Assembly: GCA_050013255.1 (NCBI GenBank)
Contig: JBEKFP010000003.1
Location: 96,001 to 160,000, forward strand
Length of the DNA stretch: 64,000 bases
From: Candidatus Bathyarchaeia archaeon
GTDB taxonomy: Archaea > Thermoproteota > Bathyarchaeia > 40CM-2-53-6
Direction of reading: 5' to 3'
A model generated the notes under the pieces. That model was not told the DNA's origin, searched no databases, and saw only the letters and a list, made by a program, of their open reading frames with translations. This document shows, one piece after another, positions 26,473 through 44,860 of the stretch. Each line of letters opens with the position of its first letter. Position 1 is the stretch's first letter. A program made the position numbers and the translations under genes.

Positions 26473-26610
26473 TCTAACGAACCGTCTACCCTCAGCGAAA
26501 TTGCAACATTCGCATTCCATCTCAAAAAGAACGGCTAACGAGACTCCACGATTAGAGGAACAGTCCAGACACTCAAAGCCATAGGAAGAAACGTAAACCT
26601 GTTAGAACGA
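26473..26610 (+). pseudogene. Integrase remnant fused to the tRNA 3' end
   Basis: IPPAPPSNEPSTLSEIATFAFHLKKNG*RDSTIRGTVQTLKAIGRNVNLL matches the N-part of 35049..36086; TAA at 26536-26538. Confidence 0.88.
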
Positions 26611-26622
26611 ATAGCCACGATA

Positions 26623-26713
26623 AATTTCTGAGTAGAGACATAGTGCTAACGGCAGAGTAGTTTATCCACTTGTTAGCAGAAAACACTTGTGATAGGGACT
26701 CCAAGGACTTTAT
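26623..26713 (+). repeat. Conserved post-integrase element, copy 1
   Basis: Shares AATTTCT.AGTAGAGACAT, TGTTAGCAGAAAACACTTGTGAT and CAAGGACTTTAT with 36277-36377. Confidence 0.8.
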
Positions 26714-26737
26714 CCTATAATTGATACGCTAGAGGGC

Positions 26738-27526
26738 CTACCTCTTTCTCTTCCGCTGCCTAAGCAGCATAACTAGAGTGACCACGAACAGAGCAGCGAA
26801 TACTACAGCTCCGCCAGCATAGAGCTGGTCTGCTGAAAACGTGAATGCCTGGGTCAGGGGCTGCGAGATAGCTTCGGTTTTGAGAAGGTTCATCGTCGTA
26901 GACGCAGGAATGGGGTTCGTAGCAGTGGTGTACATTGTGAAAGTTTCGACTTGAGACTTTGCGGACCACACGTTCAATGTGTACTGGACAGACTTTCTGC
27001 TATTTCCGGTCGTTAGAATCCAATAGTACTGGCCATCGCCCGGAGCTGTCCAGGCGGTTTCATAGGATGTCAAGATTTGAAACATTGCAAACACCGCAGG
27101 CCAAGCGCCGTTGTAACCATTTTGTGTGCCACATACAACGACATTGGGTGTTATAGGAGAATAATCGGGTTCATTTATGATGTTCAGAGAAGCAAACTGA
27201 GCTGCCGTCATAATATAGAAAACAAGCGGATTGTTGTTCGACGTTATCGAAAAGGAAACTTCAGCGCCCTGGGTCACGACAAAATAGTCATACACGATGG
27301 GACAGAGTTGAAGCAAGGAACCCTGGGAGTACACATAGATTCCAGGTGTTCCACCCAGCTTGCCTGCATAAGGAGAGGAACCATAATCGGTAGTGTAGGT
27401 TGTTGTCCCATAGCTTGTAGCTACAGGGGTGGTGACCGTGGTATACGCCTGACTTTGAACTGCTGGCAAACTGACAACTGGAAGCATAAGTAGAATCGTT
27501 ACTAGAAGGCGAATAAATTTCGACAA
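26738..27526 (-). CDS. Secreted membrane-anchored hypothetical protein
   Basis: Signal peptide, Thr-rich segments, C-terminal TM + RQRKRKR. Confidence 0.75.
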   Translation of the reverse strand: MSKFIRLLVTILLMLPVVSLPAVQSQAYTTVTTPVATSYGTTTYTTDYGSSPYAGKLGGTPGIYVYSQGSLLQLCPIVYDYFVVTQGAEVSFSITSNNNPLVFYIMTAAQFASLNIINEPDYSPITPNVVVCGTQNGYNGAWPAVFAMFQILTSYETAWTAPGDGQYYWILTTGNSRKSVQYTLNVWSAKSQVETFTMYTTATNPIPASTTMNLLKTEAISQPLTQAFTFSADQLYAGGAVVFAALFVVTLVMLLRQRKRKR

Positions 27527-28163
27527 GGCTACTAAGTAGCTTTCATGGTTTACAATAAATCGCTTTGTATATCATACGGCATTGTTCTCGACTGATTGTG
27601 AGTCAGACGACTTCGTACCGAACGTTACAAGGACCGTTATAATACGATTAAGGACTACATGCGTCTTCGAGACGCCTAATCCATACTTTATCATCAGAGC
27701 GGCCAACTCTCAACAGCTTCAAGAATTGGAAGTTCCCGCCACTATCCGAAAGAGTCTTCAGCAAAGGCAGCTGCACGCTGGTTTGTTCCGGCAACGCCAT
27801 AGTATGGTCATTCAGATTGAGAATGGCACTCTAGGTTAAATCGTGACTCGTAATTGATTCTTTCCCAAGAATCAGCCCAAGAGACAGTTTTGGGTTCCTC
27901 TCGCTCGTCATGCTCGTCTACTTTCACAATTCACTGACCGTTAGACAGAAGCATCGAGTCCAGTTATTTGCTTACATGATTCACGGCAAGAACCGTGAAT
28001 GAAGTTGAGCTGTCCGATTTGTGACCTGGAACTTCTCGGCCAAGATAAATGCCCGCTGAAACGTTGCGAACGATGTTGCTTATGGTTTGAGCTGCAGGAT
28101 GACGGCAAGCTCATTCCCCTACGAATTGATAATCTAGCGAAATATCTCTAGAGCTGTCTAAGA

Positions 28164-28346
28164 TTGCTATTCGAGAACAAGTCAACTAGAAGTCCTAACT
28201 GCAAGAACCAACTAGTGTGGATTAGCCACGTTAAACTGTGGAAGCGTGCGAGGGAGATTAACGAATTCAATTTCTCCTGTGAAACATGCAAGCGCCAGTA
28301 CCAATTCATAGATAACAAGATTATCGAGAAGATACTCTCCTCCTAG
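28164..28346 (+). CDS. Possible small Zn-ribbon protein
   Basis: SPNC...CETC. Confidence 0.35.
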   Translation: MLFENKSTRSPNCKNQLVWISHVKLWKRAREINEFNFSCETCKRQYQFIDNKIIEKILSS

Positions 28347-28574
28347 ATAACCTGGTTTTTGTTTCGGAGAATTTTCTCAATGCTGCAATTCCTACTGTTG
28401 CAACCAAGAGGGACGCAGCCATTCCGCGTTTTGCTATTGGATTCTGCTGTGATGGCCAATGAGAACAGAGAAGTTATGGGCCTGAGAGGCCACTGGGGTC
28501 AAGGAAAACGGGGAGGATTTGGCAAGTATTAAGAGCCTTCGACTTCAACTTATAGATTCTCTAGGTTTGAAGTT

Positions 28575-29309
28575 ATGAAGAGATTCATCCCAGTCACCTT
28601 AGTCCTACTGTTCCTATTCGCGTTGCCCCATGTGGCGGCATCTCCAAGTGCCGTCATTCACAACAACACTAGCAACTACATAGATGAGGTTGGTTACCTT
28701 CATGTGGTGGGCGAAGCGCAAAATACCGGCGATGTTTGGTTACAATCTGTGCGCATCGGCGCCACCTTCAAAGACCAGAACGGCGCCGTAGTGGGTACTT
28801 CCTTCACTTACACGTTGCTCGACCGCCTGCCCCCCGGTGTTACTTCAGGCTTTGACGTGTTCGAATTTGACAAGGGGAAGTCGGCGATGATTCGAAGTTA
28901 CACACTCGCAATAGAGTTCGAGACGGCCGAACCATTGACCACTGCCCTAGAGATTATCAATACGTCCTCATCAAAGGATAGCTTTGGATTTTTGACTATA
29001 GTGGGCGAAGTCAAGAACAACGGTGACACAATCAGCGAATACACGGAAGTCGTAGCCATCTTCTACGGCGCCAACGGCAATGTGGTCGACGTGGGCTACA
29101 CGTTCACTGAACCGACCACCGTTCAACCGCGCAGCCAACAATCCTTCAAACTTATACCAACAAGTGACCCCCAGAGCAACTTAGCCACTAGGTGGGTCTT
29201 GGACACGCAAAGTAATCAGTATGCAAGTGTCTCCGAAACCATTTGGCCAGCACTCATGTTGGCCGCAGCCCTGTCCCTATGTGGTTTTGCTATGCGAAAA
29301 AAGAACTGA
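28575..29309 (+). CDS. Secreted protein with two FxLYD-like domains and C-terminal anchor
   Basis: Two 'VVGE.KN.GD....V.A.F...NG.VV' repeats; signal peptide; TM + RKK. Confidence 0.8.
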   Translation: MKRFIPVTLVLLFLFALPHVAASPSAVIHNNTSNYIDEVGYLHVVGEAQNTGDVWLQSVRIGATFKDQNGAVVGTSFTYTLLDRLPPGVTSGFDVFEFDKGKSAMIRSYTLAIEFETAEPLTTALEIINTSSSKDSFGFLTIVGEVKNNGDTISEYTEVVAIFYGANGNVVDVGYTFTEPTTVQPRSQQSFKLIPTSDPQSNLATRWVLDTQSNQYASVSETIWPALMLAAALSLCGFAMRKKN

Positions 29310-29400
29310 CAAGCGGATATCAGTGTGTTCGTGAGAGCTTCGCCCAACAAAATTGAGCTCATAAGGCCTGCCCGAAGTTTCTGACTAGGCTTTGGAGTCC

Positions 29401-29444
29401 CATGATTCCCACGATTCGTGGATTCGAATCCCATCGGCCCGACA
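29401..29444 (+). repeat. att-like tRNA-derived repeat, type A (degenerate)
   Basis: catgattCCCACgattcGTGGAttcgaatCCCATcggcccgaca. Confidence 0.8.
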
Positions 29445-29531
29445 AAAATCAAGGCTTCACAAAGATAATTAACACAAAGGCGAGGATTAAGATACTGGAA
29501 ACAGGTTTCGTCCAGCCTTTGAGTTGGAAAC

Positions 29532-30848
29532 TTGCCCTTTCCCGATCCTAAGGCTCTTGTGGCACTGGCTATTTTCGTCGCAACTTATGGTGTTCTAGCT
29601 TTTCGCAATGTGAAAGGATGGAAGTTTCCAATTTGGCTGATTCTGCTGATTGGTGCAGCTGCGATGGTTTTGTCAGGGTCGATCAGTGTAACCGACGCCT
29701 ACAAGGCAGTTGACCTTCATGTCATTCTATTTCTCTTCAGCATGTTCACTCTCGTCACAGCACTCGACATCGCAGGCGTCCTGGACGCATTTACAACTAG
29801 GCTCTTGCTTAGGGCGAAAAAACCCGAGGACGTCTTGTATCTCACATTCTTCGGCTTTGCAGCAGCCAGCGCCGTTCTGATGAACGACACCCTAGCCCTC
29901 ATGGGTACACCAGTCATGATTTCGCTCGCCAAGAAGATGAAGATTTCCTCACGACCTCTTCTTCTCACCTTAGCATTCGCTGTTACTATTGGCAGCGCCG
30001 TAACACCGATGGGAAATCCGCAGAACTTACTCGTAGCTTTGGGCAGCGGAATGCGTGCCCCCGTTCTCACCTTTGCGAGATACCTCCTCATTCCTACAAT
30101 AGTCAACCTCCTGCTAACCTACTATCTTCTGAGGCATCAGCTCCGCAACGAGTTTGCGAAAGCACGAAAAGGTTTCCGTGACCTGGTCGATTTCGAAGCG
30201 TCAACACAGAAAGACGTGATGAAAGACGGTGGACTGGCAAAGCTTGCCATCTCTGTCACCTGTCTAACTATTGCGGCAATCTTTCTCATAAACATCCTTG
30301 AAGAGGCAGGTGTTCCAACGCCTTTCGGAATCGCAGAGGTATCACTTTTCGGAGCAGCCCTGCTTTTGGCCCTCTCCGGTCGAAGCAGGGAGATCATTCA
30401 ATCGATCGATTGGGGTATCCTTGTTTTGTTCGCTTCTCTCTTCGTGCTTACGCAGGCCGTTTGGGATAATGGGATCATCGCGGCGATGGCGAGCTACTTG
30501 CCTACGATCAGTGCTCAGAATCCGCATTCTTCGATACTCGCAATTCTGGTTTCTAGCGTTGGGCTTAGCCAAGTCTTGAGCAATGTGCCGATGGTTGCGC
30601 TCTATATTCCGCTCATGAAATCATTGAATTTTGGTCCCCAGAACGTGTACGCCTGGATTGCGCTTGGAGGCGGAAGCACGCTGGCAGGTAATTTCACGCT
30701 CCTTGGGGCAGCCAGTACCCTCATAATTATCGAAGAAGCTGAAAAACAAGGGCACACCTTAGGATTCTTCGACTTTCTAAAAATCGGGATCATCGTAACA
30801 GCGGTCACAGTCGGGGTGCTCTACTTCTTCCTGCTTCTCGTAAGTTGA
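29532..30848 (+). CDS. ArsB/NhaD (CitMHS-like) ion transporter
   Basis: MND, GSAVTPMGNPQN, LSNVP, GSTLAGNFTLLGAAS; many TM helices. Confidence 0.9.
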   Translation: MPFPDPKALVALAIFVATYGVLAFRNVKGWKFPIWLILLIGAAAMVLSGSISVTDAYKAVDLHVILFLFSMFTLVTALDIAGVLDAFTTRLLLRAKKPEDVLYLTFFGFAAASAVLMNDTLALMGTPVMISLAKKMKISSRPLLLTLAFAVTIGSAVTPMGNPQNLLVALGSGMRAPVLTFARYLLIPTIVNLLLTYYLLRHQLRNEFAKARKGFRDLVDFEASTQKDVMKDGGLAKLAISVTCLTIAAIFLINILEEAGVPTPFGIAEVSLFGAALLLALSGRSREIIQSIDWGILVLFASLFVLTQAVWDNGIIAAMASYLPTISAQNPHSSILAILVSSVGLSQVLSNVPMVALYIPLMKSLNFGPQNVYAWIALGGGSTLAGNFTLLGAASTLIIIEEAEKQGHTLGFFDFLKIGIIVTAVTVGVLYFFLLLVS

Positions 30849-30853
30849 GTTGA

Positions 30854-30924
30854 TTCTCAGTATCGAGGGTTCGAGAGTCTCATTGGTCCCACGATTTGTG
30901 GGTTCAACTCCCATCGACTCCACG
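30854..30924 (+). repeat. att-like repeats: partial type C (30854-30874) plus type A (30881-30924)
   Basis: ttCTCagtatcGAGGGTTCga; cattggtCCCACgatttGTGGGttcaactCCCATcgactccacg. Confidence 0.78.
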
Positions 30925-30937
30925 AGTGATTGGATGG

Positions 30938-31250
30938 GGTCTTGCTAGAACTCAGGAAGCAGAAACGGCTCAAAATGGGACGATTTAGAAGTAGCCCCAC
31001 CGTACATTACAATTAAGTCCCACCGGCCCCACCACGAATTCTTGCGGTTCACGCGGCGGGTCTCAGATGGCATGACTTGAGGGATTATTTCCACACATCC
31101 TGCGTGAAGGTTGGCATTCCACACCGTGTAGTCCATTTCATGCTTGGACATGTGGCTGAACGAGAGGATCATTTCAGGGACATGATGTCTCGCGACATTG
31201 ACTATCTGCGGAAGGAGTACCTCAAAGTGGAAACACAGTGTTTCGCCTGA
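30938..31250 (+). pseudogene. Tyrosine recombinase remnant interrupted by the tRNA 3'-end sequence (31018-31034)
   Basis: RWHDLRDYF...HFMLGH...DIDYLRKEY (HxLR and LGH motifs); upstream KWDDLE-like segment in another frame. Confidence 0.72.
31018..31034 (+). repeat. Exact 17-nt copy of the tRNA 3' end
   Basis: TCCCACCGGCCCCACCA. Confidence 0.85.
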
Positions 31251-31427
31251 TCAAAACGAATAGTAAAACCATCATGTGTGAATGAGGGCACTTTGTCTGA
31301 CGAGAAAATCCCACAGACCCAGAAACGTCCGGTGATCAATCCGCCAAGAACGGGTAGTACGGGAGGTTCCCTGAGATGTTATCGATGAGTCAAGCGAACA
31401 TGGCCATGACTATCCTGGCGCTAGCTT

Positions 31428-31778
31428 TTGTGGGGGTGGGCTGTCTGTGCGGCGATCATTGGAGTTGGAATGATGTTTTCTTCTCAGATCAACGCCCTGA
31501 TAGCGCACGCAATTGGAGCACCTGTCGTCTTTGCGATTATATCCTTACTCTACTTCAAGAAATTCAGGTATACAACGCCGTTACAGACCGCCCTGATTTT
31601 TCTTGCATTCGTTTTCCTGATGGATTTCTTTGTCGTGGCTTTCGCAATCATGAGGAGTTTCCAAATGTTCATGAGCGTTCTCGGAACATGGATTCCTTTT
31701 GCTCTGATCTTTATCTCGACCTATGCGACAGGAGTGTATGTGACGATGACGCAGCAACAGAAAGGGGGTCACGTGTGA
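31428..31778 (+). CDS. Small multi-TM membrane protein, possibly N-truncated or frameshifted
   Basis: Four hydrophobic segments. Confidence 0.6.
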   Translation: MWGWAVCAAIIGVGMMFSSQINALIAHAIGAPVVFAIISLLYFKKFRYTTPLQTALIFLAFVFLMDFFVVAFAIMRSFQMFMSVLGTWIPFALIFISTYATGVYVTMTQQQKGGHV

Positions 31779-32482
31779 GAACTTTGGGAATGGAGTCCAT
31801 TCTCCTTTTCGGCTTTTATTGCTTCTTCTAGTTTCCTTTCTAACTCAGCAACTTCTTTTCTTTTTTCTGTTAGTTGTTCGGCAAGCAGGACTTTTAGTTT
31901 GGCTTTTTTTTGAACCGTCAAATAATATCCTTTTTCAATCTCTTTCCCTCCAGTCAATGCTGTTGCATTTTTAGAGCCGAATACAATAAGTTCTCCCGGA
32001 TTGGCCTCCAAGAATGCGGTGTTTGCAAGCACTTCTGATGCGTCTGCAAGTCTTTTGCCTTTATCTACGGCCTTTTCGACCTTAGTTGGAGGATCTGTTG
32101 AACTTACTTTTTTCTTTGCAAAGCTCAAGTTTCCGGCTTCGTCAACCTGCACCACCCGAGCACGAAAGCCGCCCCCGATGCCCGAAAAGATGCTAACCAT
32201 GCCCCTGCCGTTTTTGTGGTAGTAGACGCCCGCGGCCAAAGGCCTTCCAGCCCTTATGCTTTCAGTAGCATTCTTGTAAAAAAAAGTTCTTTGGCTCCAT
32301 TTAGTGCCTTCTGCAAAGGCTTCATCACTAGTTACTTTAGTAGCAAGTACTTTTGATTCTGTCCTTTCTCTTGCGGATGCGCTCATATTATCACCTTGAA
32401 ATTTCACTGATAATAAGGGTGCTGCCTTTCGATAGTTCACCATGCTCACGATGTCGAATGAACAGATGATTCGATAAGGCAT
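31769..32482 (-). CDS. Lys/Glu-rich hypothetical protein (likely start ATG 32387)
   Basis: Long ORF with AGGTGA before MSASARER; AT-richer than flanks. Confidence 0.6.
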   Translation of the reverse strand: MPYRIICSFDIVSMVNYRKAAPLLSVKFQGDNMSASARERTESKVLATKVTSDEAFAEGTKWSQRTFFYKNATESIRAGRPLAAGVYYHKNGRGMVSIFSGIGGGFRARVVQVDEAGNLSFAKKKVSSTDPPTKVEKAVDKGKRLADASEVLANTAFLEANPGELIVFGSKNATALTGGKEIEKGYYLTVQKKAKLKVLLAEQLTEKRKEVAELERKLEEAIKAEKENGLHSQSSHT

Positions 32483-32489
32483 TCAAGCT

Positions 32490-32653
32490 TCCTCCCGCAC
32501 AATATATTGTGCTGAAGTCCCACCCCCACGCCCCACGACGTGCACCTGTTGCGTTAAGGGCTAGAATGCGGCTAGTCGACTTCACGGGCTTCGAAAGAAA
32601 CCGACTTTATGCGGAAGGAATACGCCAAAGTCGAAAAACGGTTCTTCGTATGA
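32490..32653 (+). pseudogene. Second remnant of the 30938-type integrase
   Basis: YIVLKSH resembles YITIKSH; ETDFMRKEYAKVEKRFFV* resembles DIDYLRKEYLKVETQCFA*. Confidence 0.55.
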
Positions 32654-32816
32654 GTGTTGTCCGTTAATGCTATTTGGGCGTGTGGAGTAGTGATTGCGTT
32701 CGACGGGAGAGTGGCCCTTGGTCTGGTTGCAAACGACCTGACGAAGTGGTCTAACCTTCATATGAAAACATGCGGGGGTTGCCAAACCTTCGCTTGTTTA
32801 ACTTGGCTAACAATCC

Positions 32817-32873
32817 GTGGAACCCTCATAGAACCCACGATATTGGTGGGTTCGTATCCCACGGGCCCCACCA
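32817..32873 (+). repeat. att-like repeat, type B
   Basis: gtggaaccctcataGAACCCACgatattgGTGGGTTCgtatcccacgggccccacca; 54/57 identical to 42134-42190. Confidence 0.9.
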
Positions 32874-33057
32874 AAAATTTATTAATTTCACGAACCCGCA
32901 ACAATCACGGACAATTCCCTGATGGCCTTTTGACTCGTTGCTTAACTTTCGGTTTCACGAAATTAACCGACATCAGTCGAAGAGTTCAGAGAACCGTAAC
33001 CCTAGAAAGTAGTCAGATGACTCAAGAAACCCATATATTCTCAGTGTTGGTGAACTG

Positions 33058-34941
33058 TTGAAAGGGCTTGACTTGCTCAAGTCGCTTTTCATGCTAGTTC
33101 TAATCCTTTTCACATCAAGTGTGGTCTATGTTGCTGGTTCAACCCCGTCTTCGCCGAATCTGACAGTCGCAGAGATATACCCAACATGGAATGAGCAGGC
33201 GTCTACTCCAATCCTTCCGGGTTCGAAGGAGCAATTCCGTATCTACGTTCTGGTGACTAATTCGGGTGGCTACGAACCGCGGAACGCCACCTTGAACCTC
33301 AAGGTCTCATGGCAAGGAGCAAATGCCCAGGGACCAACCGAATATCAAGACAGCGTTGATGTGAAAAGTGGATCTGATGCTTTTGCCTACTTCGGACCGT
33401 TTGTAGCGGATTCGCCCACGAATATGACGGTGCTGGCCACTATTAACCCGAATCGCACCATTCAGGAATCAGATTATTCTGACAACGGCATGAGTGCCAC
33501 GTTCCACGTTGGTAAACTGTTTCCAACGGTCTCCCTTTTATCCGCTGGAACTCTTTGGCACGAAAACGAGACGCCGTCATTTTACTATACCTCTAGCGTT
33601 AGTTCTAGTGGTAACTATGAGAATCGGCTTCACGTCACGATGTCCCGCAACGGAGAAATTGTTGCAGTCCGCTCGGATTCTGGGCACATCAGTCTTTACA
33701 AGAACGGGACATTGATTTACGATCTACAGTCTACAACATTCTCGGATTCTGCTCTTTCGGATTCCGGAAAATACTTCGCCGTGAAGACTGACTCCATCAA
33801 ATTATTCGATGTGGATCAACTTGCTATGGGCAACAAGGCCCCGCTTGCTTCTGTCTCCGGAATGACAAAACTGGGGATGCTATCCTTCTGGAGGGTCGCG
33901 GTATCTGACAATGGCACGTTGGCGATTGCTGGATTCGCGAACTCAATCTTGAGCTTTGGTATCCTCAAAGTAATCGGCGACCCACAAAGATTCCAAGACT
34001 TTGGGACGGGAGTCTCGTGGGGGAAAGTTTTCGACGGAGATTCCCCGCATTTCGGTCCGAACTTTTATTATCTTATAGAAAGCCTAAGCTTTGACGACAC
34101 TGGTCAACTTCTGGTCGGACTAAGTGGATTTTTTGTTGGCAACCCCCATTCGCTGTCAAGACTTTACGGACCTAATCCATGGTTATACCTACTCGATTCT
34201 CTTGGAAATGTTGTATGGACTGGAAACGTTTCATCACGCGTCTCCGAGGATAGTGCAATTTCCTCCGATGGAAAGGCCCTGCTCACAGCCACGGATGACG
34301 GCCGTATCCATTACTTCGATAGATCAACAAACACCAATTTCAGTTTCTTCCTGGGGTTCAACACAGGGCCGAAGGGAAGCATAGGGACGAGCAATTCCCA
34401 GTTTGCGATTTCTCCTACCGGCGACTATCTAGCTGTAGCGGATTCGTCGAGCATCTACATCTTGGACGCAACCGGGGCACCGCTCTTCATGTTCCCCATG
34501 TCAAATGTCACTAGTCTCGCCCTTGGCGGAGGCTATCTCGTGGCTGGAAGATTAGGCGGTGCCGAGGAAATTTCTCTTTGGCAACCTGTTGATCAGGCAA
34601 TCGTTGAAGCTCAATCCCTCATAAACCAGGCACTTGGTGCGGGAGCCAACGTGACCCAAGCCGCGTCCATTCTGGCTTCAGCACAGGAGCAGAGGCGAGA
34701 GGGTGAATGGTACAAAGCATATTCGTATGCTGAAAGCTCGATTATTACTGCCAATCAGGCGTTGGCTTCGAGAACACTTTTCGCTACAGCTACAACAAGC
34801 TCATTAACACTGCCCAGCGGGCCGCCTGCCGAATTGCTCCCGATCGCAGTCATCTTGCCAATTGGAATTGCAGTGGTCATTCTTGTTGCAGTAACCTTGC
34901 TTATTACTGTCAGAAGGAAACGTCGGAAGACCGCCGAATAG
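33058..34941 (+). CDS. Secreted CARDB + beta-propeller surface protein with C-terminal TM
   Basis: Signal peptide, INPNRTIQESDYSDN (CARDB), 'AISSDG/AISPTG' WD-like repeats, TM + RRKRRK. Confidence 0.8.
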   Translation: MKGLDLLKSLFMLVLILFTSSVVYVAGSTPSSPNLTVAEIYPTWNEQASTPILPGSKEQFRIYVLVTNSGGYEPRNATLNLKVSWQGANAQGPTEYQDSVDVKSGSDAFAYFGPFVADSPTNMTVLATINPNRTIQESDYSDNGMSATFHVGKLFPTVSLLSAGTLWHENETPSFYYTSSVSSSGNYENRLHVTMSRNGEIVAVRSDSGHISLYKNGTLIYDLQSTTFSDSALSDSGKYFAVKTDSIKLFDVDQLAMGNKAPLASVSGMTKLGMLSFWRVAVSDNGTLAIAGFANSILSFGILKVIGDPQRFQDFGTGVSWGKVFDGDSPHFGPNFYYLIESLSFDDTGQLLVGLSGFFVGNPHSLSRLYGPNPWLYLLDSLGNVVWTGNVSSRVSEDSAISSDGKALLTATDDGRIHYFDRSTNTNFSFFLGFNTGPKGSIGTSNSQFAISPTGDYLAVADSSSIYILDATGAPLFMFPMSNVTSLALGGGYLVAGRLGGAEEISLWQPVDQAIVEAQSLINQALGAGANVTQAASILASAQEQRREGEWYKAYSYAESSIITANQALASRTLFATATTSSLTLPSGPPAELLPIAVILPIGIAVVILVAVTLLITVRRKRRKTAE

Positions 34942-35031
34942 GCGCCTGGATGCCGAGAGGTTATCAGCCGTAAAGCGAGAGTCGGGCCGTCAATAACTAC
35001 CGTTCGTGTGCGTTAGAGCTTCGAAAATGGC

Positions 35032-35076
35032 CATTAGTCCCACAAATCGTGGGTTCAAATCCCTCCGGGCCCACCA
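35032..35076 (+). repeat. att-like repeat, type A left arm joined to a CCCTC-type right arm
   Basis: cattagtCCCACaaatcGTGGGttcaaatCCCTCcgggcccacca. Confidence 0.88.
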
Positions 35077-36086
35077 CCTTTGGCAACTTCAAGACTGCAA
35101 CTGACAATATTGCCGACCTAGTGGAACCCGCATGGAACCCACGATATTGGTGGGCTCGTATCCCACCGGCCCCACCATTTAACGAACCGACCCCACTCAG
35201 TGAACTAGCGGCATTTGCTTTCTATCTGAAGAAGAACGGCTACCGGGATTCCACGATTAGAGGAACCGTGCAGGCTCTAAAGGCGTTAACGCATCACGTT
35301 AACCCCCTAGACCCTGAATTAGTGAAAGGCTACCTAGCTAGAGCAGACTGTTCCATTAATCGAAAAGGGAAGGTTTGCGAGGACCTAGACCGGTTCTATA
35401 AGTACAAAGGTATTCAGTGGGCCAAACCGAATTATCAACGAGTAGATACTCTGCCTTTTGTTCCCACAACCCAAGAAGCAAACGACCTGATAGCCTGCCT
35501 TGGCCCGAAAATGTCCGTGTTCGCTCTTTTGCTGAAAGAAATAGGTTGCCGGTTCAATGAGGGTTTCGGCCTGAGATGGCAAGACATCAACGTAGAAAAT
35601 AGTACCGTAACGATTACTCCGTTGAAGGGGTCCTATGCAAGGCAAATGAAGATAAGCCCCAAACTAATGGGACTACTCAATAGCCTTCACAAGAAATGGC
35701 CAACATACGTTTTCAGAAATCATAAAATTGAATTGTGGAAATCCTCTAAGCGATTTAGAACCGAATACATGTTTCAGAGACGCAGAGCCTCAATCAAGCT
35801 GAATCAGCCCAGACTAAACCTAGTCAGTTTCAAGAGCCTACGACATCACTACGCATGTAGGCTCTATGAATCAACGAAAGATATTCTCTTTGTTCAAAGA
35901 CAGATGGGACATAGAAGCCTGTCAAACACGGTTCGCTATACTCGGATGGTCAATTTCGATGCTGAAGACGATTTCATAGTGAAAGCGGCCAAAAATAAGA
36001 GCGAAGCGGAACCTCTGATAGAAGCGGGATACCAATACGTCGTTACCACGCCGGAAGGTTACATGTTATTCAGTAAGAGGAAATAA
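35049..36086 (+). CDS. Tyrosine recombinase/integrase; start codon lies within the att repeats (GTG 35049 or GTG 35121)
   Basis: GCRFNE (R), LKGS (K), FKSLRH, QMGH, TVRY (Y). Confidence 0.93.
   Translation: MGSNPSGPTTFGNFKTATDNIADLVEPAWNPRYWWARIPPAPPFNEPTPLSELAAFAFYLKKNGYRDSTIRGTVQALKALTHHVNPLDPELVKGYLARADCSINRKGKVCEDLDRFYKYKGIQWAKPNYQRVDTLPFVPTTQEANDLIACLGPKMSVFALLLKEIGCRFNEGFGLRWQDINVENSTVTITPLKGSYARQMKISPKLMGLLNSLHKKWPTYVFRNHKIELWKSSKRFRTEYMFQRRRASIKLNQPRLNLVSFKSLRHHYACRLYESTKDILFVQRQMGHRSLSNTVRYTRMVNFDAEDDFIVKAAKNKSEAEPLIEAGYQYVVTTPEGYMLFSKRK
35121..35177 (+). repeat. att-like repeat, type B, inside the integrase ORF
   Basis: 56/57 identical to 42134-42190. Confidence 0.92.
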
Positions 36087-36088
36087 CC

Positions 36089-36160
36089 GAGTTGATAGAG
36101 GCGGGGTTCGACTTCATCTTGCAGAAAGATGGGTTAGCATATTTTAGAAAACGGAAGTAA
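36089..36160 (+). pseudogene. C-terminal tail of another integrase of the same family
   Basis: ELIEAGFDFILQKDGLAYFRKRK* parallels PLIEAGYQYVVTTPEGYMLFSKRK*. Confidence 0.75.
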
Positions 36161-36276
36161 GACCTTGATAGCGCCTCTTGATGGCGACTCATCACGACCA
36201 TAATGGCGCTAATAATGCCGATAATCGTATACATAAATTCCCACCCATTTCTACTTACCGATTAACATTGTTTTGG

Positions 36277-36377
36277 AATTTCTTAGTAGAGACATGGAGT
36301 CTCGCCAGGGGCACAATGGTTGAACCGCCTGTTAGCAGAAAACACTTGTGATGCCATAAGGACTACAAGGACTTTAT
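36277..36377 (+). repeat. Conserved post-integrase element, copy 2
   Basis: Matches 26623-26713, with a 23-nt identical core at 36330-36352. Confidence 0.8.
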
Positions 36378-36387
36378 TCTTGCGAAG

Positions 36388-36852
36388 TTGGGAGAGCTTG
36401 TAGATTACATCGAAGACCGAGATGGTCTCCGAGTCGTTTTGGGCTACTACTACATGACCAGTACCAGCGTAGACGCATTGCGAAGTAGAAGATTGTTTGT
36501 AGGATTCAAGGAACAGTTAAGACAGTTGGGCATTGAGATGGTGATTGTGGAGAAGCGGAATGATAAGTCTGGGAACATTGACCCTCGTCTGATCTCCGAT
36601 GCTTATAGACGCCTGCTTATTGAGAGGAAAGCGCCTTCAAACTTGGTTCTTGTGTGCGGTGATAAGGACTATGAGCCGATGCTCGTCGATTATGAGAAGC
36701 AAGGTCGAAGAGTAGCTGTATGCTTCTATCAACCGGTGGGCGGGGGCGCATCGATAGACCTATTGACCATCAGTGGAGCAGAATTCATCGAATTCACCAA
36801 TCCGAAACAATCTTGGACGCTTCAGAAATGCTCTCTTTTGCCGAGCTTTTGA
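36388..36852 (+). CDS. NYN (PIN-like) domain protein, probably N-truncated
   Basis: D..L..D, LVLVCGDKDYEPML...GRRV. Confidence 0.72.
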   Translation: MGELVDYIEDRDGLRVVLGYYYMTSTSVDALRSRRLFVGFKEQLRQLGIEMVIVEKRNDKSGNIDPRLISDAYRRLLIERKAPSNLVLVCGDKDYEPMLVDYEKQGRRVAVCFYQPVGGGASIDLLTISGAEFIEFTNPKQSWTLQKCSLLPSF

Positions 36853-36936
36853 CCTCCCAAAACATCGCTTTCCTTTACCGAGCAACATGAAGGAAGGCAG
36901 ATAAGTCATAAATAGACAGCGGTAAACCTCCTCAAT

Positions 36937-37734
36937 ATGAAGCACGTTCTGGTTCTTGTTACTGCGTTTCTTTTGCTCATCGTGACCCTACCTTCGATAA
37001 GGGGCCAAGTGAACAATCCGGTAGCTTATCCACTGTTAAACCAAGTTACTGTTGACGGAAAATACACCAGTCCAAGGGAATGGAACGATACGATTGTGTT
37101 CGAGGCGGTGGCGGGATTGGGCGAGACGGTGTACTTCAGCGCAAAGTACGATTCAACTTACCTCTACACCATCTGGGATTTCCCTGAGTGCAAAACATCG
37201 TTCACAGGCAGCGACACAAAGGGTGCAAACCAAGTATTACTCTACTTAAATCCTCTCAACAAGCGTTCAGCCACTGTTGATAATACCATGTACCGCATCG
37301 CTGCTTGGGAGTACGGTGCCCCCGTCGCTCGTGTCTCGGGCTCTCAGGGCTTGACAGGAGGCGGATGGGCAGAATGGGCTCATATAGACGGCCATTTCCT
37401 CGCTGCCTTGCAGTACACCTCTTCGCCACACTCTCAAACTCCCCATTTTGTCCTCGAACTTCGCATCGCATTAACATTCGCTAATCTGAAGTCAGCGACC
37501 ACAAATAGCAGCATCGGAATCGCCTTAGGATGGGTGGACAACTTTGGGAATGGCTTCGAGGTCGATTATCCAAGCGACTATAATTACAAGGATCCGAGTA
37601 CTTGGGGAACTATGTCGTTCTCTCACATGGCAGTACCAGAATTTCCTTTGAGTCCCACAGTGCCGTTCTTGGTCACGATTTTTGTCACAATACTCGCATG
37701 TAAGATAGCAAGGAAGAAACTCGAGGGGCGGTAA
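36937..37734 (+). CDS. Secreted CBM9/DOMON-like protein with PEF-CTERM anchor
   Basis: VDGKYTSPREW, ELRI, PSTWG; VPEFP + TM + RKK. Confidence 0.75.
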   Translation: MKHVLVLVTAFLLLIVTLPSIRGQVNNPVAYPLLNQVTVDGKYTSPREWNDTIVFEAVAGLGETVYFSAKYDSTYLYTIWDFPECKTSFTGSDTKGANQVLLYLNPLNKRSATVDNTMYRIAAWEYGAPVARVSGSQGLTGGGWAEWAHIDGHFLAALQYTSSPHSQTPHFVLELRIALTFANLKSATTNSSIGIALGWVDNFGNGFEVDYPSDYNYKDPSTWGTMSFSHMAVPEFPLSPTVPFLVTIFVTILACKIARKKLEGR

Positions 37735-37987
37735 GAACTCATCTTCGTTCCGCTGATCAATCAGCAACGTTATTTGTGGTCTAACCCCGACACTGTTGGG
37801 CAACCCCAACCGAGTCTGTTTACTGGAAACCAGTACTACATGAAGCTCTTCGACTCGTTTCAAAGTGTGCGTGATATGCTCTATGCCGGAATACTAAACG
37901 CTACTATGAGTATTTATTTCGCTGAAAGAAACAATCAATGAAAGTACACGACACGTGCTAGCCGTATTCAGATACAGCGTTTTGTAG

Positions 37988-38010
37988 CTCAATAATTGAG
38001 GGTTCGTACC
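37988..38010 (+). repeat. Partial type C att-like site
   Basis: CTCaataattGAGGGTTCgtacc. Confidence 0.55.
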
Positions 38011-38082
38011 GCTTCGAGCTATCTTTCTCGTGTCCTTGCATTGATAGCTACCGAAGTTTCTCGTGAATCTAGTTGGAGATGT

Positions 38083-38123
38083 CATTAGTCCCACGAATCG
38101 TGGGTTCAAATCCCACCGGCCCC
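38083..38123 (+). repeat. att-like repeat, type A
   Basis: cattagtCCCACGAaTCGTGGGttcaaatCCCACcggcccc. Confidence 0.92.
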
Positions 38124-38212
38124 TATTAAGAAGACTTTGTCGTCTGTTCACAGCCATTTTCGCTTGGAAATGTTCCGTCATAATTCATTTAATCGGGTTT
38201 GTAATGGTTCGG

Positions 38213-38587
38213 TCAGAACTGAGATTCGGAAAACATTCTCTCGAAAGAGGCTTGAGGTAAAGGTTTGCCTTTTGACAACAGTAACAACCGCTGTCTGAAC
38301 CTGTCGGTCTTCTTACCAGATATTACCAAGGCTACGAGGGCTATGATAGTCGAGAAGCCGAGAGAGAAGAGAAAAAACCCAACTGTTAATGTTGACCTGG
38401 CATTACTCAGCCAGGAGCTGGTCAAGCCCCCGAGTGAAAATATGAAAACAATCATGATAATATTGATGGCTTTATCAATCGTCAACGTTCGTGATTCTAA
38501 CGCAGCCCGAAGCACGTCCAGTTGCCATTCTGCTTTTCGGGAGGGCACGCCTCTAGTAGAACGCTTCCTCGCTGCCATCTTAACCAA
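38213..38587 (-). CDS. Two-TM hypothetical protein
   Basis: Two hydrophobic helices flanked by basic regions. Confidence 0.6.
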   Translation of the reverse strand: MVKMAARKRSTRGVPSRKAEWQLDVLRAALESRTLTIDKAINIIMIVFIFSLGGLTSSWLSNARSTLTVGFFLFSLGFSTIIALVALVISGKKTDRFRQRLLLLSKGKPLPQASFERMFSESQF

Positions 38588-38745
38588 CTGAGAATAGATC
38601 TCTCTCCCTCCTAAATATCATGTAGCATTGAAGTTGCTTTGCTCGCCACCGGAATTCGACATTAGGGTACGTGTGTACGTTTCGTAAATTGGAAAGACTC
38701 ATTTGGGGCCCATTCGTTATTCTACTTGATTCGAGTGACTAAGCG

Positions 38746-39576
38746 TTGGAATCCACGCCAGAATTGGTTCGCAAGTTTGCACCTGAGATATCGTTCAGCA
38801 AGAACGAACCATATTTCCCTTGTCCGATTTTCTTCAGTGGTGCTGACATAGTTAGTAACAGGGAGAAGTACGAACCGCTTACGCCAGACCAGAAAAGGAA
38901 TTTGATCTCTTGCTATTATCACGTTTCTCGTTATGAATCTCATACTGCATACGAGTACTGGTACTACTATGTTTACAACGATTATTCTGGAGGATGGGAC
39001 TTGGGTGCTCCAGACATACACGACCACGATATGGAATTTGCGATAGTGTACGTCGATAATGCATCGGGCACTGTATACGCTCTAGCATTAAACCAGCACC
39101 ATTGGCGAAATTGGGTTTGGATGTCAAATGATTTGAAAGTGTTTGCCGAAGAAGGAGGGCACGGTTTATTCCGAAAAAGGACTCTACTTGACTCTTGGAA
39201 ACCTGGTGGCCTCACAATCAAGGTAGACCCAAAGGAATCGGTTGAATCACTCCGCAACAAATTCATTGATCCCGAACCTGCGAATCTCATGGAAAATGAC
39301 GGGACAATAAAGGGCCAAACAGCGATTTTTCTGGGAGCGTGGGCTAAACCAAAGGTTCCGTGGGTTCGACAAGAGTATGTCTTTCCTATTTCGCAACTTC
39401 TAGCAGACGCTGATAAAGACAAGGCACGCATGCTTTCCGCAGCTCCTCGTGCTATGATGTACCCAAGAGAGATTACGCTTAGTATTCCCTACAACAAACC
39501 TACACGAAAAGAGAACTTGGATGAAGCACTTCGGCTCCAACTGATTTCGGATCATCAATACAAAGCCATGCTATGA
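38746..39576 (+). CDS. Vps62/NPP1-like domain protein
   Basis: KFAP...E.YFP, YWYYY..ND, HDHDME, GGHG pattern. Confidence 0.55.
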   Translation: MESTPELVRKFAPEISFSKNEPYFPCPIFFSGADIVSNREKYEPLTPDQKRNLISCYYHVSRYESHTAYEYWYYYVYNDYSGGWDLGAPDIHDHDMEFAIVYVDNASGTVYALALNQHHWRNWVWMSNDLKVFAEEGGHGLFRKRTLLDSWKPGGLTIKVDPKESVESLRNKFIDPEPANLMENDGTIKGQTAIFLGAWAKPKVPWVRQEYVFPISQLLADADKDKARMLSAAPRAMMYPREITLSIPYNKPTRKENLDEALRLQLISDHQYKAML

Positions 39577-40398
39577 CAGCTTACACTTGGGACAAAGCCA
39601 TGTCACACCTTGGGGTCTCTCAGGGTGATTCTTATTGTCGAGTTTGCCTTCCGGCCCCCGGAAGTCATGGTATAATTCACATTCCTTTCTGAAAGCATCC
39701 TCAGGAGACTTTGAGTATTCGAACTTAAACCGATCATATCTGCCTATGTACTCCTTCAAGCGAGCCTTCACATCGACATCAGTGCGACTCATAAATTGAA
39801 CATAGAAAGTCTTGCCCTTCTTGAGCCCGAGAACATATACTCCAGCCGAAACATTAGAAACTTCCTTGTCAATCGTGCCTTCATCAAGCGGAAACGAACC
39901 CCTCAAACCAGTACTCCGGCGTCGCTCCTCAGTTAAGAAAGACAGGTCGTCTTGACTTTCTCGTGAATCCCTTCTTACGAGAGCTAGGATCCCGGCAACT
40001 AGCAGCAAGAGACCCCCAACATAGAAACCTGAAGCAACTATGACGCCGATGATTCCGCATATCACTAGACAGATGCCCCAGTTTCTGGGCTTGCTCTTAA
40101 CAAGGACTGCTGCAACAAGTCCAATGATAGAAATCAGAGCGGAAACTGCGGCCTGCGCATAGAGAGTCGTTGGGTTTCCGGAGAAAGCCTCCATGAAACC
40201 TCCGAGGAAGACCAATACAGGTACGAATAGAAGCCCCAGCACTCCACCAATCAAACCGAGAATAAGTTCAGGCATCCGACTAATGGGGGGTTTAGATGCA
40301 GCTTGTGATGACTTCGCATTCCACATGTCTGCTCCACATTTCGGACAGAATCTCATCCCAACTGCAGTTGATTCGCCACAATTCGGACAAAAGGGCAT
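39571..40398 (-). CDS. Zinc-ribbon + multi-TM + GIY-YIG-like C-terminal domain fusion
   Basis: CPNCG..FCPKCG; TM bundle; GVYVLG...RL...ECELYH...NHP...CPKC. Confidence 0.6.
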   Translation of the reverse strand: MPFCPNCGESTAVGMRFCPKCGADMWNAKSSQAASKPPISRMPELILGLIGGVLGLLFVPVLVFLGGFMEAFSGNPTTLYAQAAVSALISIIGLVAAVLVKSKPRNWGICLVICGIIGVIVASGFYVGGLLLLVAGILALVRRDSRESQDDLSFLTEERRRSTGLRGSFPLDEGTIDKEVSNVSAGVYVLGLKKGKTFYVQFMSRTDVDVKARLKEYIGRYDRFKFEYSKSPEDAFRKECELYHDFRGPEGKLDNKNHPERPQGVTWLCPKCKLS

Positions 40399-40520
40399 TG
40401 GCTGAACCTCGCATCTAACCCTCTAAGCCTTCGTATTTCAAACTATGCAAGACGGCCATTTCCTTACCGCATGCGAAATCTTAAGATGCGGATTGATAGA
40501 CACGCAATACTCGGTAAGAC

Positions 40521-41216
40521 TTGCCTTTCTGTATGAAATGTGGAAGCGAGTTTGCTGCTGGCGTGAAATTCTGTCCATCTTGTGGCACGCCAGTGACCTC
40601 ATCAGATGCTTCAAGTCATCAAGAACGTTACGGCACTAGAAACGTCCAACAGAGCGCCAGTCCAATTTCTGTGCCGTCAAAACCAAGGAACCTGTCAGCA
40701 AAACTGCTGGCCTTGTTATTCATTGTGTTCATCTTGGGTGTAGGACTGGGGGCTGGTTCGACTCACAGCGGAACGACAACTGTAACGGAGACGACTCAGA
40801 CCACGTATACGTTGCCAATCATAGTCACGGCAGAAACTAATGTTACAGAATACAAAACTGCAATGTCAGCCATATTCTCCGAATTTCACAACATAACGAC
40901 TCAGACCGCAGATAACTTTCATGCGTTCAGTATCGGGCAGATGTCTCGAACTGAATTAATCTCATTCGTGAGCCAGCAGAAGGACAACCTCAAAGTTCTG
41001 ACGGAACGCACCCTCAGATTACACCCTCCCCCAGCCTTCGCCGAAGCCCATGTCCATGTCGTCAACGCCTTGAGCCTTTGCTACTCAGCGTTTACGCTTT
41101 ATGAAGATGGCCTTATCCAGAACAACCCATCGTTGATCACAGAAGGCAACGACTTCGTTAACGAAGCGACAAACGAACTGCAAACCGCTACGTCAATCCT
41201 CAATTCCAACACCTAG
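40521..41216 (+). CDS. Zinc-ribbon, single-TM protein with helical external domain
   Basis: CMKCG..FCPSCG, TM, Thr-rich linker. Confidence 0.75.
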   Translation: MPFCMKCGSEFAAGVKFCPSCGTPVTSSDASSHQERYGTRNVQQSASPISVPSKPRNLSAKLLALLFIVFILGVGLGAGSTHSGTTTVTETTQTTYTLPIIVTAETNVTEYKTAMSAIFSEFHNITTQTADNFHAFSIGQMSRTELISFVSQQKDNLKVLTERTLRLHPPPAFAEAHVHVVNALSLCYSAFTLYEDGLIQNNPSLITEGNDFVNEATNELQTATSILNSNT

Positions 41217-41308
41217 TCGCTTTTTCCTAATGTCTCAAGTTTCATTTTCTAGCGAAAGTCGAGCCATCAATAACGAGTGTGCGTAGGCGTTCGGGCTCTG
41301 ACATTGGT

Positions 41309-41352
41309 TATTAGTCCCACGATTTGTGGGTTCAAATCCCACCGGCCTCACC
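41309..41352 (+). repeat. att-like repeat, type A
   Basis: tattagtCCCACgatttGTGGGttcaaatCCCACcggcctcacc. Confidence 0.9.
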
Positions 41353-41441
41353 GCTTTCGTGGGTATAATCAGCAACGCCATAGATGGAAGTGGTTCATAC
41401 GGCGTGAGAAGTATGAACCGATTGCCAAATGTCGGAGCTAT

Positions 41442-41720
41442 TTACATAGAGCCAACGAATTTCTTCGCAGCCTCAAGAATTGCCTGTTCCTGTTGTTTGA
41501 CCATGTCTTCCAACTCTTTTGCCTTTGCCGGGTCAAATTTCGGCAATGCTTTGGTTATCTTAGCGGCAACTTGTCCAAGCGATTGTACATTTGCGTGAAA
41601 TTCTCTCTTCGTGTTCGATGTAGTAAGTTTCCGAAGCGCCTCTTGGAATTCCCGCTTGAATGCCTCGAAGTCTCCAATTGCCCCAGTTTGTGCCAAGCTC
41701 CACTCCTCAGCGAACCTCAC
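41442..41720 (-). CDS. Small helical hypothetical protein
   Basis: 92-aa ORF with amphipathic helical composition. Confidence 0.5.
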   Translation of the reverse strand: MRFAEEWSLAQTGAIGDFEAFKREFQEALRKLTTSNTKREFHANVQSLGQVAAKITKALPKFDPAKAKELEDMVKQQEQAILEAAKKFVGSM

Positions 41721-41800
41721 TCATTCGTGAATTATAAGAAGTTGGTTCGTCTCTTTATTTTATATCACTTTGCCTCCGCTTAACTCTGCGCCTTATCTCA

Positions 41801-42247
41801 TTGTTTAGTTTACAGCAAGCAATCATGAAAGAATTGAACTGCCCAATGTGTCTAAGCCCGTTATCGTTAGCGAGCTTAGAGCAAATTTGGCGAGGCCCAG
41901 ATTTCGAACATCGGTTAACGTACTACTGTCATCTGAACCTACTACTGCAATCTGAACCTCTAGGTCAGCATGCGGAGAGGTTTAAGATATTTGATATTGA
42001 GTGCAAAATTCAGCGAGACAATTGCGCGAGGGACTTACTTGACACTCGAACCCTCAATATTGAGGGTTCGTATCCCTCCGGCCCCTTCACGTTTCGAAGC
42101 TTTAGGACTGCGGCTGACAATGTCGTCAGCCTAGTGGAACCCGCATGGAACCCACGATATTGGTGGGTTCGTATCCCACCGGCCCCACCACTTTCCTCTT
42201 TTCGAAAACCGTCAGAGTCCAGAACGCGAGGAGGATTAAATAGTTAA
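41801..42247 (+). CDS. ORF reading through two att repeats; candidate int(N) fragment
   Basis: GSYPSGPFTFRSFRTAADNVVSLVEPAWNPRYWWVRIPPAPP matches the integrase N-terminus. Confidence 0.45.
   Translation: MFSLQQAIMKELNCPMCLSPLSLASLEQIWRGPDFEHRLTYYCHLNLLLQSEPLGQHAERFKIFDIECKIQRDNCARDLLDTRTLNIEGSYPSGPFTFRSFRTAADNVVSLVEPAWNPRYWWVRIPPAPPLSSFRKPSESRTRGGLNS
42047..42085 (+). repeat. att-like repeat, type C, with perfect 24-bp palindrome
   Basis: CGAACCCTCAATATTGAGGGTTCG tatccctccggcccc. Confidence 0.88.
42134..42190 (+). repeat. att-like repeat, type B (last copy seen)
   Basis: gtggaacccgcatgGAACCCACgatattgGTGGGTTCgtatcccaccggccccacca. Confidence 0.92.
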
Positions 42248-42266
42248 ATATTTATTGAAAAAAAAT

Positions 42267-42533
42267 CTACTTTGTCCTGTACACCCTGTCATGGTGTTCA
42301 TAATCTTCGAGAATGACGGTCTTTCGTTGTTCGTCGATTGAAAAGAGGAGGACAAAGCTGCCGAAGTGGGCCCTCCTCATTCCGCCGAGTGGAAAGCGCA
42401 TTGGCTTGAATCTATGCGGGTCTTCGAGTATCTCCTCTATCTTCTTGGCTATGACTTCCATTTGATTACGATTCCTTTTGGCGAGCTTCTTGAAAATTCT
42501 GTCGACGTGCTCTCTTGCCTCTAAGGCGTACAT
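42267..42533 (-). CDS. RelE/ParE-superfamily toxin
   Basis: FKKL..., P..FKP...L.G.RR.H...FVLLF.ID...V....HHD. Confidence 0.85.
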   Translation of the reverse strand: MYALEAREHVDRIFKKLAKRNRNQMEVIAKKIEEILEDPHRFKPMRFPLGGMRRAHFGSFVLLFSIDEQRKTVILEDYEHHDRVYRTK

Positions 42534-42776
42534 TCATTTCAAGCCGTATTTTCTCTTGAAGTCGCCGGCGTTGCCGATCCTGATAATTGGTTCTTTGTGT
42601 ATCTTGTCGAGTTTCTTCAGGTATTCGGGCCTTACCTCAGACTCTAGGACGAGCACCTTGTACTGCTTGGCCATTTCGTTTATCGCCTGTGATTTGTCCT
42701 TCAAGCCGTACTGGGCCTTGAGGACGTTGATGACCCTGTTAGCTTCTTCGTCTATCTCAACGATTGCTTTGACCAT
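42534..42776 (-). CDS. Antitoxin (DUF2683-like)
   Basis: Directly upstream of the toxin; NRVINVLKAQYGLKDKSQAI, RPEY. Confidence 0.75.
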   Translation of the reverse strand: MVKAIVEIDEEANRVINVLKAQYGLKDKSQAINEMAKQYKVLVLESEVRPEYLKKLDKIHKEPIIRIGNAGDFKRKYGLK

Positions 42777-42899
42777 ATTAATGTCATATTAATACGGCAA
42801 TATAAGGCTGATTTCGGTGCGGTTGCCGAGATCTCGACGCTGAGGTTGTTGTAGACTTAGTTTTCTAGCAACCAGGGGAGCTAGCTGCTCCATCCCAGA

Positions 42900-43178
42900 A
42901 AGGCATACAAGAAATTCACAGCCCTTGCTCGCGTAAAAGAAGGCGACGTGTATCAGGGGGACATGGGTGGTGGTTTCATGCCTTATCGGAGAGATGTGGA
43001 ATTTCTTCCCTGCGAAGAGGCGGACATTCTACCTTTGATTCCGCAACTAACCTTCATTCATAATAAGTGAAGCTGGGGTTTTGTATTTCGATTCGGATTT
43101 TTCGAAATAGCCGAGGACGATTTCGAACGAATCACCAAATATGTGAAAAAGAAACTGAATGATCTTGGGCAAGGGTGA
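42900..43178 (+). pseudogene. EVE-domain protein remnant
   Basis: KFTALARV...YQ.DM...FMPYRRDV...LIPQLTFI..K*SWGFVFRFGFFEI..DDF; internal TGA, no start. Confidence 0.72.
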
Positions 43179-43365
43179 TGTGAGCCCGCGAAAAGCCTTC
43201 AAAGTTAGTCGTTTCGGTACGTGCCCCACTGTATTGATGCGATACCGCCCACTGGCCCCACTATGAATTCCGGTACGTAACTTGCTTTGTGCTGAGTAGG
43301 CTGGAGGTTTGAGGCTTGCCTGTATGCTTCCCTGAGTTCGATTTCCTATGAAGTACGGGGGCTGG

Positions 43366-43987: not shown

Positions 43988-44860
43988 TTACACGATTTTC
44001 GCCATGAGGCTACCCTTCCTCGACGTTCCCCATTTTGGTAGGCCTCTTCCTTGCAAGACGAATATTGTGCCCTTACGTGTTCTAGGCGGGATACGAAGAA
44101 GAGCAGTTGAACCATCTAGGGTGGGGATGCTGATTTCTCCTCCACGTCTCAATTTGGTAATCGAAACGGGTACCTCGCAGTAAATGTCATCAACAATCCT
44201 GCGGAAGAGTTGATGGGGTCTCATCACAATCTCCACGAAAACATCCTCCCCAAAGTTTTCTCCCGCTAATCTGATCTGCATACCTTCCTCAACACCCGCA
44301 GGAATTGTGAACGAAAGGGATTCAACCTTCTCTGTAACTCCTTTGCCCTTGCAATGTTTGCATGGAGCCTTGAATTTGATTCCATGACAAAATTGGCAAA
44401 CGCTTCTCCGGGTCGCAAAGATGGACTTTCTTGCTCCTGTTGCAACTTCTCTAAGTGAAACTTCCAAAGTAAACTTGAGGTTTCCCTTCGGCCCTTCTTC
44501 TACTGTGAGTATTCTTCTACCGTCACGGAGGTCGAGAACTGGTTCTTCGCGAAATGCTTCCTCGCGAAATGGTTCTTCGCGAACTGGTTCTTCACGGTGT
44601 GCGATGGAAACAGGGATCTGGTCCCATGCTTCTTCGTCAGTATCTAACTCTCGGTTCTGCAGAGCCGCACATGCTTCCGCATAGGCCTGTGATATTTCCT
44701 TGAACTTTTCATGTGCTGCAGGATTCTTATTTCTGTCGGGGTGGTATCGGAGGGCAAGTCGCCTGTAGACTGCTTTCACTTGTTCTTTTGTGGCGTCTTC
44801 CGGAACCCCCAAGACCTCATAATATTCTCTCTTGGCTCCGGTCCCGGTCACACTTTCCAC
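43988..44860 (-). CDS. DnaJ-family protein (J domain, shortened Zn finger, DnaJ C-terminal domain)
   Basis: [50 protein letters not shown]. Confidence 0.88.
44536..44595. repeat. 4 x 15-bp tandem repeat encoding [20 protein letters not shown]
   Basis: gaactggttcttcgc gaaatgcttcctcgc gaaatggttcttcgc gaactggttcttcac. Confidence 0.9.

Follow-up and report, generated by a model that had tools for sequence, protein, structure and literature searches.

A XerA-like integrase family of Bathyarchaeia with its start codon apparently carried across the att core, and an attP-like junction in a tandem array

The genomic comparison presented here supports the view that, in a family of XerA-like integrases of Bathyarchaeia, the start codon and the N-terminal leader lie on the far side of the att core from the integrase body. 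One member of the family resides in the window, by which we mean the whole stretch of DNA analysed (64,000 nt of a Candidatus Bathyarchaeia archaeon, contig JBEKFP010000003.1, positions 96,001 to 160,000), inside an array of att copies derived from a tRNA gene. A preliminary description, made from the sequence alone, had taken positions 35121–35177 of the window for an attP-like junction retained in the chromosome, and indeed arm, core and integrase at 35121–36086 have an attP-like anatomy within the chromosome. We consider it rather probable that the locus brings together a split XerA-like family, accretion of elements and a foreign arm that re-supplies the start codon at 35121.

The features on which the argument rests are the following, with coordinates in the window:
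26293–26472, plus strand: intron-rich tRNA gene, acceptor stem and T-arm found by cmscan with a large insertion between them; its last 28 nt (26445–26472) are the att core
26473–26716, plus strand: relic of an integrase 5′ end directly 3′ of the tRNA; TAA at 26536, then sequence like the region downstream of the intact integrase
32817–32873, plus strand: type B arm and core, with an in-frame TAG
35032–35076, plus strand: second T-arm-like copy (type A left part, different acceptor), which holds GTG 35049 and matches another tRNA end at C1:25800
35121–35177, plus strand: type B arm (35121–35149) and tRNA-derived core (35150–35177), with GTG 35121 and 19 codons in the integrase frame
35178–36086, plus strand: integrase body, 302 aa, intact, with all catalytic residues present and the fold starting at about residue 49 of the 345-aa ORF
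38083–38127, plus strand: type A att-like copy inside a 7-kb unit
41309–41353, plus strand: type A att-like copy inside the 7-kb unit
41825–42019, plus strand: small zinc-ribbon gene, decayed; second CxxC and stop are lost and the frame continues into arm Y
42045–42190, plus strand: right-hand double site of a palindromic T-arm-like copy, type B arm and core, followed by non-integrase DNA

The tRNA gene, which we take to be tRNA-Pro, is missed by ARAGORN and by Rfam at the gathering threshold, and only a relaxed covariance scan recognises it. Nine to twelve co-oriented copies of its core lie within 26453–43263, where 0.05 would be expected; twelve such sites split 17 kb into segments of 0.1–3 kb, each holding one to three genes in both orientations, with one intact integrase among them. 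According to the preliminary description, a type B left arm occurs at 32817 (with an in-frame TAG), 35121 and 42134 (open), and a search with the 57-nt arm plus core returns these three matches against none expected in shuffles. The copy behind the tRNA gene itself had been called silent for want of a start codon after the TGA at 26392. No ATG, GTG or TTG is found in frame there, and the copy is a relic as well: 26445–26579 is 80% identical to 35150–35284, the TAA at 26536 interrupts it, and the match of 26623–26716 to 36277–36380 reveals an internal deletion. Split-integrase elements and their integrase-less relatives, accreted at one tRNA gene, would most simply account for the stretch from 26.3 to 43.3 kb.

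Several other features of this region deserve mention in their own right. An att core at 31015–31034 is preceded by an in-frame ATG ORF of 13 codons, with TAA where the T-loop would be, which may be a decayed integrase head. Next to the integrase lies an NYN-domain gene (36388–36852) with 78% DNA identity to genes in the integrase-less islands of genomes G048 and G052 at the same tRNA; it may be a conserved cargo of the element family. Just past the right-hand arm, a ParE-type toxin gene (42267–42533, minus strand) has a probable partner gene upstream, also on the minus strand, and at 44532–44606 a 15-nt unit is repeated four times head-to-tail inside a minus-strand ORF. On another contig of the source genome (G000), an arm-like copy of the tRNA-Pro end (locus L069, C2:295575–295600, minus strand) is followed by the flank that trails att cores in other species, and may represent either an additional site or the result of a rearrangement between att copies.

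The integrase ORF (35049–36086, plus strand) encodes 345 aa, with PF00589 at residues 156–299 (E = 4e-19). Its frame is open from the TAA at 34971–34973, that is from 34974, straight through the tRNA 3′-end copy at 35158–35177. Positions 35150–35177, a copy of the T-arm and acceptor end of the tRNA, are read as a peptide ending in IPPAPP, just as the preliminary description had it; all of its factual statements hold. Ahead of the integrase fold only two canonical in-frame starts are present, GTG 35049 and GTG 35121, and both lie to the left of the att core. The second is the GTG of the type B left arm, noted earlier as being in frame; a start there yields a protein of 321 aa, with the usual length and leader size of the family. 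Between the core and residue 74 no canonical in-frame start is found; the next one, GTG 35268, codes for residue 74 itself, and initiation there would remove helix 1.

An AlphaFold model built with 20 homologues has a mean pLDDT of 81; the fold opens with a helix at residues 49–62, and pLDDT stays below 50 for residues 1–4 and 9–46 of the 345-aa version. Where conservation begins among homologues was a check suggested beforehand, and in the alignment it sets in just ahead of this helix. The peptide encoded by arm and core is therefore, as far as model and alignment can tell, a disordered leader. The catalytic set (R168, K193, K262-x-x-R265, H288 and Y297) is invariant or nearly so in the 20 homologues. 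After the catalytic tyrosine the family carries a conserved tail of about 40 aa (residues 309–345, window 35973–36083), for which three strands and one helix are predicted with confidence and which ends in a basic motif; we know of no counterpart of it in XerA-type recombinases.

To which family does this integrase belong? It has the catalytic domain and residues of the tyrosine recombinase superfamily, and a Pfam search at E values up to 10 returned PF00589 only, with no match to PF16795 (Phage_integr_3). Matches in the PDB at E values up to 1 comprise XerA, an integron integrase, XerH and XerD, and no SSV integrase is among them; the best solved relative is XerA of Pyrococcus abyssi (4a8e, E = 2.5e-9, residues 30–278 of the 321-aa version). 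The 49 matches among phage records are bacterial XerD-like integrases with 21–28% identity and include no fusellovirus. Equivalog models are not reached either, with 65 bits against a cutoff of 220 for XerA (NF040815), and 60.5 against 265 (TIGR02249) and 40 against 435 (PRK15417) for integron integrases. By sequence, the protein belongs to the XerA-like tyrosine integrases of tRNA-targeting integrative elements in Bathyarchaeia, and not to the SSV type. The preliminary description had spoken of an SSV-like split integrase. Its split-gene layout, with the attP core inside the integrase ORF, stands and recurs in six of six relatives; the attribution to the SSV family does not, given PF00589 as the only domain match, XerA as the best relative and the lack of any fusellovirus match.

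Of 104 other genomes of the order, 24 contain homologues of the integrase. Nearly all of these homologues follow a tRNA 3′ end directly, are oriented like it and have their frame open through it; relative to the T-arm, all three frames are in use. In about half, the stretch from the tRNA end to helix 1 contains no ATG, GTG or TTG; therefore a start downstream of the att sequence, which the preliminary description had set against its own proposal, is not a feature of the family. The source genome, a three-contig assembly with an estimated contamination of 8.6%, contains three intact integrase copies and one relic, each adjoining a tRNA end.

For six elements attL and attR could be paired: two paralogous ones in the source genome (C2:260018/250593 and C3:28346/41765) and one each in G043, G024, G052 and G047. 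In all six, the attR arm offers a start codon (ATG in five, TTG in one) that shares its frame exactly with the integrase body at attL, followed by a leader of 9–31 codons before the T-arm. The leader begins with Met-Thr in four arms; the arm with TTG has Thr as its next residue, and that of G047 has Met-Thr at the fourth codon. Most of the six arms also show an A/T-rich box 25–40 nt upstream of the start. The six bodies are only 40–57% identical to each other (39–73% to the window copy) and are therefore not one recent copy. For the family, the earlier proposal that start codon and N-terminal peptide are supplied across the att site is thus borne out in every reconstituted relative.

We thus propose that an attP core of about 30–45 bp, identical to the tRNA 3′ end, would lie inside the first 10–40 codons of the integrase gene. 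Integration would leave an integrase body without start codon directly behind the tRNA, while the start codon, and presumably the promoter too, would stay at the far end of the element together with a short disordered leader. A further attP-type junction, that is, an arm with T-loop variant joined to an integrase 5′ end, was found neither in genome contigs nor in viral contigs nor among 11 metagenome arms, and viral and genome collections yielded no free circular or episomal form of the element. Viral contigs gave six matches, five of which belong to an unsplit subfamily (33–36% identity, N-terminal zinc ribbon, no tRNA end upstream), the sixth being remote (25%); we rejected them as a guide to the subfamily of the window.

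How did the junction at 35121 come about? Each new element entering the tRNA-proximal core would place its own right arm before whatever lay behind the tRNA, here an integrase body. The body at 35178 would in this way be abutted by the right-hand type B arm of the element to its left and an attP-like junction be recreated, at which the in-frame GTG 35121 of the neighbour's arm would open the 321-aa ORF. The 135 nt of arm X up to the core (35046–35180) and arm Y (42059–42193) are 84% identical, with unrelated DNA after arm Y; this makes them right ends of related units, as expected if neighbouring elements are related. The att-like copies at 38083 and 41309 fall within the 7-kb unit, so that the integrase may have another cognate arm than arm Y. 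Comparable junctions of arm, core and integrase relic occur in G047 (C3:503170, L066) and G045 (C42:3404, L128); the L066 arm of G047 also offers an in-frame ATG, yet the integrase there is a relic. Elements integrating one after another at the tRNA-proximal site would, we infer, have produced the junction in the window, with GTG 35121 serving as start codon; such use is plausible, and expression of the gene is a prediction from sequence.

The strongest alternative holds that the integrase at 35178 is a silent, headless body like those behind any other tRNA, that GTG and open frame of the type B arm are fortuitous, and that excision would need the integrase of another element. We regard it as unlikely but as a serious contender, and the type B arms themselves provide much of the case for it. 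We collected 26 further copies of this arm, 15 from eight genomes of the genus, the other 11 from metagenomes, and none is followed by an integrase. A block of 40 nt is invariant across the 26 copies, the variable sites fall on codon positions 1, 2 and 3 in the numbers 7, 6 and 4, which is not the variation of a coding sequence, and seven of 14 distinct variants have an in-frame TGA or TAG at codons 4–5. These stop-bearing positions lie within a spacer that separates two direct copies of a short motif, also found inverted in the T-arm. Together, the pattern points to protein-binding DNA and not to a coding region. Furthermore, in G046, G048 and G052 type B-like arms close islands of 5–9 kb at the same tRNA that contain no integrase homologue, and two of these three (G048 and G052) carry a counterpart of the window's NYN-domain gene, 78% identical to it in nucleotides. 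With stops in half of the variants and arms mostly on integrase-less islands, GTG 35121 may be fortuitous. No TATA-like box is found at the usual distance from GTG 35121, and the leader that starts there does not begin with Met-Thr, unlike those of the six other arms. Against a silent body stand 302 intact residues that retain all catalytic positions, an ORF from GTG 35121 that has the length and leader size usual in the family, and a first arm codon that is GTG, ATG or TTG in 14 of 14 variants.

The short motif mentioned above, GGAACCC (window 35121–35190; arms L033–L058), has two direct copies in the arm, an inverted one in the T-arm and a further one about 6 nt past the core, an arrangement that looks like the grammar of putative integrase-binding sites. 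Depending on the relative, the copy past the core is read in one of two frames. Conserved codons just past the core had been considered as a peptide; with the same short DNA motif in two frames, a DNA site is at least as likely, and the peptide was dropped. The start context shared by the two arms of the source genome was searched in 59 genomes of the family, where its own two arms were the only real matches.

A stronger claim than the use of GTG 35121 is that the junction represents a working, expressed integrase kept in the chromosome, which serves the integrase-less segments and is set on or off by the upstream arm; this we hold to be quite improbable. From the anatomy, direct att copies that recombine would lead to excision or deletion of segments and thereby put a different arm before the integrase, the arms at 35121 and 42134 being open and that at 32817 carrying a TAG. 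The "recombination switch" of the preliminary description is speculation, and nothing beyond ordinary excision or deletion is indicated.

We judge it very unlikely that the array is an integron-like platform, in which a resident integrase serves cassettes between palindromic tRNA-derived sites and the upstream arm forms part of the primary recombination site. The co-oriented sites with their short segments and single intact integrase would suit such a platform, as would the integrase-less islands with the same arms in relatives. Yet the one to three genes per segment lie in both orientations, the integrase stands in the middle of the array here and directly behind the tRNA in G051 and G047, as at an ordinary element end, integron-integrase models score 60 bits against 265, and an integrase relic behind the tRNA is what successive element insertions would leave. 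A true integrase of 424 aa, the product expected if excision between 61-nt repeats joined the body in frame to the zinc-ribbon ORF at 41825, is most improbable: the ORF at 41801/41825–42247 does read arm Y in the integrase frame and distant unsplit relatives have an N-terminal zinc ribbon with a similar first motif, but homologues of the N-terminal 65 aa are free-standing (60–67 aa, own stop), a search of the 122-aa stretch against 1.84 billion representative proteins returned none joined to an integrase and, for the zinc-ribbon part, free-standing proteins with their own stops (four of them of 60–82 aa), the gene in G054 is followed by another small zinc-ribbon gene and no arm, the window copy lacks the second CxxC, and the BLASTP match to the unsplit form amounts to 8 of 19 residues (E = 0.005).

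The reading we prefer, a split XerA-like family with accretion and a foreign arm at 35121, can be set beside known systems. Self-splitting integrases have been described as one monophyletic SSV-related group of hyperthermophile elements, in which PF16795 marks the "suicidal" integrases of SSV, pTN3 and pT26-2 (PMC8371274). Like these type I systems (SSV1, SSV2, pTN3 and pT26-2; PMC8371274, PMC7253208), the window family has attP within the integrase ORF, targets the 3′ part of a tRNA gene with a core of tens of bp and, after integration, has the catalytic body behind the tRNA and the head at attR. It differs in belonging to PF00589, XerA-like and with no PF16795 match, in a head of only about 10–40 residues with predicted disorder where the SSV type has a functional N-terminal domain, and in its hosts, Bathyarchaeia instead of hyperthermophilic Sulfolobales or Thermococcales. 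With XerA and the classical pNOB8-type (type II) archaeal integrases it shares the two-domain fold and the catalytic set, 4a8e being the best solved relative. Unlike XerA, however, it is element-borne, lies beside a tRNA and stays far below the equivalog cutoff; unlike type II integrases, whose genes stay intact on integration, its gene is cut; and the alpha/beta tail after the catalytic tyrosine sets it apart from both.

In the CIME/ICE arrays of streptococci, integrative elements and derivatives lacking an integrase accumulate in tandem at a single att site. These arrays are similar to the present one in that co-oriented att copies part integrase-bearing from integrase-less elements and in that a resident or incoming integrase could move its neighbours. 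At the window locus, in contrast, it also depends on the junction whether or not the integrase body is given a start codon.

In summary, to judge from the sequences compared, the splitting of this gene works like that of the SSV-type "suicidal" integrases in a different sequence family. Tandem integration restoring an intact gene for a suicidal integrase has been modelled, as an unstable state, and was never observed in the data sets of that study (Badel et al. 2020). The locus at 35 kb resembles this tandem-restored state, but with a foreign arm; what is new is an intact-looking integrase ORF at a junction inside a tandem array, arrays of this kind not having been observed for SSV-type elements (Badel et al. 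2020). If a XerA-like family of Bathyarchaeia splits off no more than a start codon and a disordered leader, gene splitting would have originated there independently and in a minimal form, with expression of the integrase in effect wired on or off to the excised state. If the copy at 35121 is expressed, it would bear on how such elements escape from "suicide" and on the mobilisation of integrase-less elements. Should the reading as a working platform prove true, the locus would present the tandem-reconstituted suicidal integrase predicted by Badel et al. as a standing recombination platform.
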